A stretch of 64,000 bases of DNA from an uncultured bacterium (GTDB taxonomy: Bacteria; Verrucomicrobiota; Verrucomicrobiia; Verrucomicrobiales; DEV007): the NCBI GenBank assembly GCA_963977015.1, contig CAXBMO010000018.1, positions 32,001-96,000 on the forward strand. Direction: 5' to 3'. The notes under the pieces are model-generated. The model made no database searches. It was not told where the DNA came from and saw nothing but the letters and a program-made list of their open reading frames with translations. The stretch's first letter is position 1. Each line of letters starts with the position of its first letter. The position numbers were made by a program, and so were the translations under genes. Positions 62,277 to 64,000 of the stretch are shown here, one piece after another.

Positions 62277-62810
62277 TCAAATCGCAGCGCGGGCGGTTCC
62301 GAGCATGTTGCCCATCGCTTCCGTGTAAAAATGGGCGAGTCCAATCGCGAGCGCGTCAGCGGCGTCACTCGGCGGAGTCTCCGTCAATCCGAGCAAGGCT
62401 CGCATCATGAACGCGATCTGGTCTTTCGTGGCCGAACCGCGACCGACGACGGCTTGTTTGACTCGTTTGGGAGCGTATTCGTGAATTTTGAGACCGTTTT
62501 CCGCCGCCGCGATCAACGCCGCACCTCGCGCGGCGCCCATCGTGATCGCCGTCTTGAAACTCTGAACGTAGATGATCGATTCGATCGCGCAGACATCTGG
62601 CTGATGCTCGCGAATCACCTCGGCAATCTGGCTTCTCGTCGCCACCAGGCACTCCGACTGACTCAGTTTCGGCGGGTTGTGGACCACTCCGTAGGTCAAC
62701 GTCTTGTAGAGATCTTTCTGGGGGATTCTTCGCCCGTCGGGAGAAGCAACTTTTTCGAGAACGGCGTAACCCGTGTTCCGCAATGCAGGATCGATTGAAA
62801 TGACGCGCAT
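62277..62810 (-). CDS. ruvC: Crossover junction endodeoxyribonuclease
   Basis: IDPA, AIE, VKQAVVGRGSATKDQ, DAADALAI. Confidence 0.96.
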   Translation of the reverse strand: MRVISIDPALRNTGYAVLEKVASPDGRRIPQKDLYKTLTYGVVHNPPKLSQSECLVATRSQIAEVIREHQPDVCAIESIIYVQSFKTAITMGAARGAALIAAAENGLKIHEYAPKRVKQAVVGRGSATKDQIAFMMRALLGLTETPPSDAADALAIGLAHFYTEAMGNMLGTARAAI

Positions 62811-62910: not shown

Positions 62911-63693
62911 TCAAGGCTGCGAGCCGACCGCCGTTTGAACCTGCTCGAGCACCATCTCCGGCGTAACGCGAACCCGCCAATTCTCCGTCAACTCCGACCA
63001 GAGAATTTCCCCCTCTTTCCCGATCAGGAATACCGCCGGTCGGGCGATATCGCCGTTGCTGAACGGATCCGCACCCACGTGGCGAAGTCCAAACGCGTCA
63101 ATCGCCTGAAAATCTGGATCCGCCAGGACCGGGTAATCCAGATTCAGTTTCGCCATCTTCTCACCAATCACTTCCGAGCGTTCAGAACTGATGGCGAGCA
63201 CTTCAGCCCCGGCCTCACGAATTTCCGAAATTTTCGACTGCAAACCTTGCAGTTCAGAAATGCAGAACGGTCACCAATGCCCCCGGTAAAACGTGAGAAC
63301 GACCAGTTTCCCTCGATAGTCATCCAAACGAACGGTTTGCCCATTCGCATCCGTGAGCTCAAAACCGGGAGCCTGTTTCAAGGCCAGGGTTTGCGGAGTT
63401 GGTTCCGGCACCTGGTAGGAAATCACGAAAACGTAGGCCAGAAACAGAGCGAGAAAGAAAAAGGAAACCACCACCCCGGTCGATTGAAAAAGCCGGCTCC
63501 AACGGCCCGCTGAAGCCCAATTCTTTCGCAGACCTAACACCGTCAGAACAAATCCCAGGATGATCAGGGGCAGACTGATCCAGGGAACATCCCGCGTTGC
63601 GGGGAATCGAGCAAATACCAGGAAGTAACTGACAAACGCAACAAACGTCAGCAACGGACCAAGCCAGCCCATAGATCGAAGCATTCTATTCAA
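62911..63693 (-). CDS. Membrane-anchored AhpC/TSA peroxiredoxin-like selenoprotein (UxxC)
   Basis: Track ORFs 63271..63693 and 62911..63243 are in the same frame and join as FYRGHW-TGA-PFCISELQGLQ; three N-terminal TM helices; ARPAVFLI. Confidence 0.88.
63238..63252 (-). promoter_or_regulatory. Bacterial SECIS-like hairpin
   Basis: CTGCAA-GGT-TTGCAG starting 18 nt after the in-frame UGA. Confidence 0.75.
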
Positions 63694-63858: not shown

Positions 63859-63861
63859 AAA

Positions 63862-64000
63862 GTTTCCCACGTGTGCCGTCCATGGTTTCAAGGACCACGT
63901 TCCCATGGCCTCTCTAGGTGGGTGGCCGCTAAAACGAGCTTGAATCTGCCTTCCAGTAAAGGCCTGACATCAGCCAGCCGGCGAGCCTCCCTTGTAGGTT
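63862..64000 (-). ncRNA. ssrS: Probable 6S RNA, 3' part (5' end outside the window)
   Basis: Non-coding; GGGAG...CACCCACCT...GGT...GACGGCACACGTGGG resembles 6S RNA 3' segments; followed by a terminator. Recognised from memory of the family only. Confidence 0.55.

Follow-up and report, generated by a model that had tools for sequence, protein, structure and literature searches.

The minus strand of the window analyzed here (64,000 nucleotides, C18:32001-96000, from a Verrucomicrobiota assembly of 6.9 Mb in 51 contigs that is 95% complete) carries at positions 62911..63693 what is probably a single gene for a 260-residue selenoprotein, in which the UGA at codon 141 is read as selenocysteine (Sec, U). 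We assign this reading a probability of about 0.88. The predicted protein joins three N-terminal transmembrane (TM) helices to a thioredoxin-fold domain of the AhpC/TSA family, with Sec as the first residue of a UxxC site. Its features, in window coordinates, are the following.

62911..63693, minus strand: predicted selenoprotein gene of 260 codons, closed by the TGA stop at 62913..62911
63693..63691, minus strand: likely TTG start codon, aligned with the ATG start of the orthologue in G001; ATG codons at 63684 and 63672 are alternatives
63273..63271, minus strand: in-frame TGA, codon 141, probably read as Sec141; all 87 loci compared have TGA at this codon
63276..63262, minus strand: motif W140-U141-P142-F143-C144, codons TGG-TGA-CCG-TTC-TGC
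63253..63237, minus strand: hairpin resembling a selenocysteine insertion sequence (SECIS), stem (A)CUGCAA, loop GGU, stem UUGCAG(U)
63415..63693, minus strand: three-helix membrane module, residues 1-93, from AlphaFold2 helices and conservation among 22 family members
63001..63378, minus strand: thioredoxin-fold AhpC/TSA (Redoxin) domain, residues 106-231, from Pfam and fold search
63271..63693, minus strand: N-terminal open reading frame (ORF) of 140 amino acids as a gene caller sees it under translation table 11; database relatives finish at the same Trp
62911..63243, minus strand: C-terminal ORF of 110 amino acids under table 11, with an internal TTG start; the database fragment P0020 begins at the equivalent SELQGLQ

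An earlier reading of the DNA letters (the sequence-only reading) had proposed that a UGA stands at the first Cys of a WCPxC-type motif, that the frame stays open for about 120 codons beyond it and that CTGCAA-GGT-TTGCAG follows 18 nt past the TGA. All three are borne out: the five codons lie at 63276..63262, 119 further codons separate the TGA from the stop, and the hairpin elements map to 63252..63247 (CTGCAA), 63246..63244 (GGT) and 63243..63238 (TTGCAG).

Conservation of the TGA codon and of the surrounding frame

We compared this locus with six orthologues, found by a six-frame search of 40 related genomes, and with 80 loci from a scan of one genome per prokaryote species. The scan recovered at least 434 relatives, of which the best 80 loci were analyzed, and the resulting 87 loci are mutually related and hence not independent. 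The orthologues match the predicted protein at 65% (G002), 55% (G001) and 45% (G008) identity; for G018, G022 and G006 the figure is ~30% over the full-length alignment A1. All six contain exactly one TGA within the match, at the aligned codon and in the motif W-U-P-F-C. A more distant homologue, in G030, reads W-C-P-F-C and has a signal peptide in place of the three helices. Residues F135, Y136, R137, G138, W140, U/C141, P142, F143 and C144 are invariant among the nine sequences of A1, as are D192, D215, G228, R240, R242 and P245 downstream. The best 80 loci of the scan belong to Acidobacteriota (Pyrinomonadaceae, Bryobacteraceae, Thermoanaerobaculia and others), with several from Verrucomicrobiota and a few from other groups, and the named loci nearest to this one are of Verrucomicrobiales. 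TGA occupies the site in 80 of 80, within the motifs UPFC (34), UPSC (27), UPLC (13) and six singletons, although queries derived from Sec forms may have inflated the ratio of Sec to Cys in this set.

The conservation extends through the TGA. P-F-C is invariant in A1, and no possible start codon lies between the TGA and P-F-C; since these residues precede the first possible downstream start, they could be made only by read-through. In pairwise comparisons with G002, G001 and G008, the proportion of nonsynonymous differences (pN) upstream of the TGA is 0.21-0.36, against a synonymous proportion (pS) of 0.68-0.71. Downstream, pN is 0.22-0.32 and pS 0.61-0.73 for the same three pairs; the ratios are rough, as synonymous sites are close to saturation. 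These values clearly point to purifying selection on both halves of the gene in one frame. The frame past the TGA remains open for 110-156 codons in 85 of the 87 loci, the two exceptions being L095, cut by a contig end, and L119, with a stop 15 codons after the TGA. L119 comes from a metagenome-assembled genome (MAG) of Verrucomicrobiae, and its early stop could reflect decay of the copy or an error in sequencing.

The interchange of Cys and UGA that the sequence-only reading had proposed to look for is also present among homologues. Cys takes the position of U141 in P0002 and L028 (both WCPFC) and in P0138 and P0155 (both GCxAC), and Ser takes it in P0099.

A conserved hairpin 3' of the TGA

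The model of the bacterial SECIS (bSECIS) element allows a loop of 3-9 nt, a stem of 4-16 bp, a G within the first two nucleotides of the loop, a spacing of 16-37 nt between UGA and loop and a minimum free energy (MFE) of -7.5 kcal/mol or lower (PMC13188914, legend of Figure 2). The hairpin found here has a stem of 6 bp, with a possible seventh pair between A63253 and U63237, and a loop of 3 nt that opens with GG and lies 24 nt from the UGA. The MFE of the hairpin stretch is -9.7 to -13.8 kcal/mol, and with these values the element agrees with the model throughout; the isolated helix has -7.1 kcal/mol.

We then measured how often such a structure occurs at the same place in the family. A hairpin of at least 5 bp with a G early in the loop, beginning 10-20 nt past the TGA (an interval whose history is given below), is found in 87 of 87 loci, compared with 12.8% (2254 out of 17661) of the other in-frame codons of the same genes. 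Three sequence types of hairpin occupy this position, encode different peptides and track the protein tree. Type A, to which this locus and 14 others belong, is CUGCA(A/G)-GGN-(U/C)UGCAG and encodes L-Q-G-L-Q. Standard pairs fill 94.3% of its 105 pair cells, with 6-41% in controls slid along the sequence. At the closing position, 9 loci have A-U, 3 have G-C and 3 are unpaired. CAA/TTG has become CAG/CTG jointly in three loci, an AU-to-GC compensation in which both changes are synonymous, and the basal pair shows a compensatory change in one locus. Type B (69 loci) is CUCCG-AGUU(A/G)-CGG(A/G)G and encodes S-E-L-R. Its stem codons, Ser TCC, Glu GAG and Arg CGG, are fixed in 69 of 69 loci while their neighbours are free: Pro at +1 uses four codons, Leu at +14 uses six, and the Cys codons vary too. 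An RNA element would be expected to freeze synonymous sites in this way. The three loci of type C have GAGCU-loop-AGCUC. Judged by these substitution patterns, selection acts on the hairpin as RNA.

A possible lower stem around the hairpin (window ~63260-63215) pairs UUUCUG with CGGAAA. The corresponding stem in G002 (L021) pairs UCUCUG with CGGAGA, a compensatory change from U-A to C-G, and the stem is not kept in G001.

Selenocysteine machinery and use of TGA in the genome

The sequence-only reading had assumed that the organism encodes selABCD, and the genome agrees: selA (498 bits), selB (293 bits), selD (376 bits; C5:255715-256644) and a tRNA-Sec gene (C5:263260-263354; Rfam RF01852, 61.8 bits with a cut-off of 47) all score above their curated cut-offs. 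In the Rfam alignment the anticodon loop of the tRNA is CUUCAAA, which gives the anticodon UCA. Internal TGA codons are absent from the selA and selB frames, and the selD frame has one. As a side observation, selD is itself a selenoprotein gene, and it sits ~7 kb from the tRNA-Sec gene. TGA is the commonest stop codon in the genome, terminating 1202 of the 2747 stop-to-stop frames of at least 400 codons.

The TGA form and the machinery also go together among related genomes. Whereas selA is above cut-off in all six relatives carrying the TGA form, it was not found in the three relatives checked that lack this form (G004 and G020, each 96% complete, and G025, 99% complete). G030, the relative with the Cys homologue, also has selA.

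Truncated relatives in protein databases

Automatic pipelines were expected by the sequence-only reading to split the gene, and database proteins show that they do. A word-indexed search returned 27 matches, 21 of which are proteins of 143-182 residues ending in F-Y-R-G-[HFY]-W just before the TGA position. The remaining matches are one full-length Cys form (P0002, 276 amino acids, WCPFC, an Acidobacteriota protein named peroxiredoxin family protein in its source), one fragment that begins at SELQGLQ right after the motif (P0020) and four ordinary redoxins. We also built a profile (A2) from the truncated forms; among 1.84 billion cluster representatives it gave 3722 matches at E <=0.001, 660 at <=1e-10 and 100 at <=1e-30, the weakest of which probably include generic redoxin N-termini. 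Among the best 150 matches, 128 end at the RGxW pattern and three more at the same aligned position with variant motifs, so that 131 stop at the residue preceding the TGA; four are full length (WCPFC, WSPYC, GCHAC and GCRAC) and 15 are other fragments. The resulting count is 131 Sec-type forms against 3 Cys and 1 Ser.

To place the non-Sec forms we relied on a quick maximum-likelihood tree of 90 rows, with L095 and L119 excluded and the Sec/Cys column masked, which is unrooted save for one long outgroup branch. P0002, P0099, P0138 and P0155 fall at three places within Sec clades, which suggests secondary and repeated loss of Sec. Sequences from Verrucomicrobiota, Acidobacteriota and one Myxococcota MAG are intermixed in the tree, and this suggests transfer between phyla.

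The redoxin domain and its active site

Residues 106-231 match PF00578 (AhpC/TSA) at 5.3e-30, with 104.3 bits against a cut-off of 26, and PF08534 (Redoxin) at 1.1e-19. No NCBIfam model exceeds its cut-off on the full protein, and it is consistent with this that the selenoprotein has been left unannotated. The top model is ResA (65.7 bits against 170), and the peroxiredoxin (Prx) models are far below their cut-offs (PRK09437, 55.8 against 140; PrxU, 36.3 against 270). AlphaFold2, run on alignment A1, returned three long helices followed by a thioredoxin fold, with a mean predicted local distance difference test score (pLDDT) of 88 and a predicted template-modelling score (pTM) of 0.78. In both the Foldseek search and a profile search of PDB sequences, peroxiredoxins of the Bcp/PrxQ/AhpE group and ResA rank side by side.

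The HMMER alignment to the PrxQ structure 2cx3 sets F-F-P-A-A-F-S-P-V-C against F-Y-R-G-x-W-U-P-F-C. R137 replaces the Prx Pro, U141 the Prx Thr/Ser, and C144 keeps the position of the peroxidatic Cys. The Prx Arg of K-R-A-V-F-I-V aligns with P220 of A-R-P-A-V-F-L-I. In this alignment the canonical Prx signature, PxxxT/SxxC plus Arg, is therefore replaced at three of its four positions. On the basis of this alignment and of the role we assume for position 220 (see below), the site appears to be a CxxC-type one in which the exposed nucleophile is Sec. The description of the protein as peroxiredoxin-like in the sequence-only reading thus holds for the Pfam family and the fold, and it fails for the active site, which resembles that of a CxxC oxidoreductase instead of a peroxidase.

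The three-helix membrane module

In the AlphaFold2 model the helices span residues 2-29/31-35, 37-59 and 64-91, with TM segments at ~8-29 (TM1), 37-59 (TM2) and 64-91 (TM3). The motif SYFLVFARFPxxRDxPW covers TM1 and the outer loop. Conservation among 22 family members is striking and involves W10, G12, S22-Y23, F27, R29, R34-D35, P37-W38, G47, F84 and F89, but neither Cys nor His is among the conserved residues. The module is matched by none of the Pfam or NCBIfam models, and feature and profile searches for the module in other contexts gave only the family's own fragments. The multi-TM N-terminus had been taken for an unusual fusion; the three TM helices are indeed predicted, and the oddity disappears, as the module is a conserved hallmark of a large family.

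The mean number of Lys and Arg residues in the same 22 members is 2.9 at the N-terminus and 4.3 in loop 2, against 1.9 in loop 1 and 1.3 after TM3. These charge counts predict that the N-terminus and loop 2 are inside, and that loop 1 and the catalytic domain are outside.

Proposed mechanism and weight of the evidence

In the mechanism that we propose, SelB with Sec-tRNA(Sec) would be recruited by the hairpin 18 nt downstream of the UGA, within the coding sequence. The three N-terminal helices would anchor the thioredoxin-fold domain in the cytoplasmic membrane so that it faces the periplasm, where W-U-P-F-C would work as the CxxC site of oxidoreductases of the ResA, TlpA and CcmG type. The exposed selenolate of U141 would attack a disulfide, a sulfenic acid or, possibly, a peroxide as its oxidized substrate, and C144 would resolve the adduct into an internal Se-S bond, to be re-reduced through a periplasmic reducing pathway. 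The candidate electron donor is DsbD, because ResA, TlpA and CcmG work that way. The genome has a single DsbD_TM match (C12; L121 862-3162, minus strand), in a frame of 766 amino acids with one TGA, located in the C-terminal thioredoxin domain at D-W-U-L-T-C. Topology, reaction, substrate and reductant are all as we infer them, and we give the reductase-type mechanism about an even chance of being correct.

The evidence is not one-sided, and several points weigh against the account given above. With respect to Sec insertion, the 48-nt stretch containing the hairpin is no more stable than its shuffled versions (z = -0.64, with 53 of 200 shuffles folding as well), and its minimum-energy fold differs from the proposed hairpin. 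The DNA of L028, the only Cys form for which it is available, also folds a 6-bp hairpin at a similar distance, so that the hairpin alone does not discriminate. Our first range of offsets (12-25 nt) recovered hairpins in only 20 of the 87 loci and was widened afterwards (8-22 and 10-20 nt); the low yield arose because the commonest hairpin type begins at offset 11. ARAGORN gave no tRNA call at the tRNA-Sec locus, where the Rfam model detected the tRNA, and the predominance of Sec over Cys is subject to the search bias mentioned above. The weight of the selenoprotein reading comes from the comparison across loci and not from the thermodynamics of the hairpin. With respect to function, Pro220 is present in eight of the nine aligned sequences and is Ser in the ninth. 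We take this position to be that of the catalytic Arg in peroxiredoxins and of the cis-Pro in ResA/TlpA-type proteins, from general knowledge of these families rather than from a residue-level structural check. The placement of C144 at the peroxidatic position leaves room for peroxidase chemistry. Finally, the gene neighbourhood, which might have indicated a function, is not conserved over the 87 loci, the commonest neighbour families occurring in 12 loci each.

Alternative explanations

The same selenoprotein may instead be a peroxidase of the membrane surface, acting on lipid or periplasmic hydroperoxides with U141 or C144 as the peroxidatic residue and with the module holding the site against the bilayer. 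This is possible, at odds that we place well below even. In its favour, peroxidases (Bcp, PrxQ and AhpE) figure in the top matches by sequence and by fold, the peroxidatic Cys of 2cx3 has C144 as its counterpart in the alignment, conservation of the membrane module is strong, and the rarity with which Sec is replaced (3 Cys and 1 Ser against 131 Sec-type forms in the best 150 representatives) fits a demanding chemistry. The signature residues lost at Arg137, Sec141 and Pro220 argue against it, as do the NCBIfam Prx models, which are nowhere near their cut-offs, and the fact that the genome already has a secreted classical T-x-x-U peroxiredoxin.

Under a related and rather unlikely proposal, the three-helix module would be part of the catalytic machine, its invariant outer-face residues (S22-Y23, R29, R34-D35 and P37-W38) and the Sec site jointly lining a pocket at the membrane surface that accepts a lipid-soluble substrate, possibly a phospholipid hydroperoxide or a quinone-type compound. 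If this were true, the family would be the counterpart in bacteria of GPx4, the deiodinases and similar membrane selenoenzymes, and the nesting of rare Cys and Ser forms in Sec clades would imply that the chemistry really needs selenium.

Termination competes with Sec insertion at UGA codons, and the membrane module is conserved beyond the needs of a simple anchor. Both facts would suit a selenium-dependent switch, in which selenium allows the full enzyme to be made, and the 140-residue membrane module, made when selenium is lacking, has a role of its own. We consider this improbable: elsewhere the module was never found with another domain or with a stand-alone ending, its fragments stop exactly at the Trp before the TGA, and the data need no function for a truncated product.

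Even less probable is that the TGA is a nonsense mutation, leaving either a pseudogene or two genes, one for a small membrane protein and one for a truncated redoxin. The two separate ORFs under table 11, and the presence of such halves in public protein sets, are what would be seen in that case. It is contradicted by the identical placement of the TGA at all 87 loci, which span several phyla, by the purifying selection on both halves, by the invariance of P-F-C with no start codon before it, by the conserved hairpin and by the complete Sec machinery. The sequence-only reading had itself named a genome devoid of Sec machinery, together with homologues that all have Cys, as the signs of a nonsense mutation; the machinery is complete, and TGA is the form at all 87 loci. 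A genome-wide reassignment of TGA to an amino acid such as Trp or Gly, with no Sec involved, has a negligible probability, as nothing beyond the open frame itself speaks for it, TGA is the commonest terminator and also ends this gene, the selA and selB frames (the two inspected) have no internal TGA, and the codon aligns in homologues with Cys and not with Trp or Gly.

Genomic context and other selenoproteins

Downstream of the selenoprotein gene lie ruvC (62277..62810) and lipB; upstream are a 6S RNA and then hscB-like and iscA-like genes. The 6S/SsrS RNA is on the same strand (minus) ~170 nt upstream of the gene, at window positions 63860-64000 and running to ~64052, with an RF00013 score of 48.9 bits against a cut-off of 46.4 (E 5.6e-8).

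In 15 of the 87 loci, mostly from Pyrinomonadaceae, the gene directly upstream encodes a DoxX_2/MauE-like membrane protein and is mostly on the same strand (for example 2530-2934 in L098 and 2446-2907 in L106, besides 13 further loci). This neighbour possibly indicates a connection to quinone or thiol redox chemistry.

The source genome also encodes a second exported selenoprotein, a peroxiredoxin with a signal peptide and the motif F-T-V-G-U-T-K-E-C, in which Sec is at the peroxidatic position (TxxU type). It occupies the end of the minus-strand frame 2398..4551 in L120 (C2:3500-9000), with the match at C2:6038-6382.

Implications for annotation and envelope redox chemistry

In public protein sets this gene is represented by a 'hypothetical' membrane fragment of ~145 residues, as are its relatives, several hundred at the least, from Acidobacteriota and Verrucomicrobiota of soil and water. 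With a model made for the family, the selenoprotein would be recovered at full length from such genomes. The family would represent an almost Sec-only redox enzyme exposed outside the cell membrane. DsbD and the secreted peroxiredoxin also use Sec, which points to a selenium-dependent redox system in the envelope. The finding leaves unchanged both the mode of Sec decoding and the kinds of protein that use Sec.

Comparison with known systems

The selenoproteins closest to the one described here are the Prx-like thiol:disulfide oxidoreductases. Table 1 of PMC13188914 lists this group (PF00578, UxxC/UxxU) as a selenoprotein family 'predicted with high confidence', Table 2 of PMC2398784 counts 225 sequences of 'Prx-like 1' (pfam00578, UxxC) in the GOS survey, and PF00578 selenoproteins with UxxC are listed for several Deltaproteobacteria in PMC1794560. 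The gene shares with them a PF00578 match above cut-off, Sec as the first residue of UxxC, a SECIS hairpin inside the coding sequence and the existence of Cys homologues. By the features that define the group, the PF00578 domain and UxxC, it is a predicted member.

Other thioredoxin-fold families are similar in part. Like ResA, TlpA and CcmG, the protein has a site of the W-C-x-x-C type, a thioredoxin fold with the same inserts and a domain predicted to be extracytoplasmic, and ResA chains are among its best sequence and fold matches, with ResA as the top NCBIfam model below cut-off. It differs from these proteins in having Sec for the first Cys and three conserved helices rather than one anchor helix, and in that no genes for cytochrome maturation or copper chaperones surround it. 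It is probably not ResA proper, whose model gives 65.7 bits against 170, and an SelL-related redox protein (NF040769) was rejected at 45.3 bits against 120. The similarity to BCP, PrxQ and AhpE (2cx3, 3hjp and 1xxu) lies in the fold, with template-modelling scores of 0.82-0.88 to these targets, and in the retained Cys at the peroxidatic position, while Arg137, Sec141 and Pro220 stand in place of the Prx Pro, Thr/Ser and Arg. The TxxU peroxiredoxin of the same genome (L120) is likewise an exported selenoprotein with the AhpC/TSA fold, but in the present protein Sec is three residues earlier, at the nucleophile position of CxxC.

Deiodinases and deiodinase-like selenoproteins provide an analogy only, being, in the descriptions on which we drew, membrane-anchored selenoenzymes with a thioredoxin- or peroxiredoxin-like fold. 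What we take to be the deiodinase context, U-P-x-F, resembles the site found here. Kinship was rejected, as PF00837 gave no match at E up to 10, and no deiodinase chain is among the fold-search matches listed (ranks up to 50, similar chains omitted).

A membrane form of the UxxC Prx-like selenoproteins is mentioned neither in the main text of PMC13188914 nor in that of PMC1794560, and a literature search gave nothing relevant. It is in this respect that the gene departs from the Prx-like thiol:disulfide oxidoreductases as described, adding to them a conserved three-helix module with a motif of its own. The data support well the conclusion that this protein belongs to a known kind of selenoprotein, within which its three-helix architecture is distinctive and so far uncurated.

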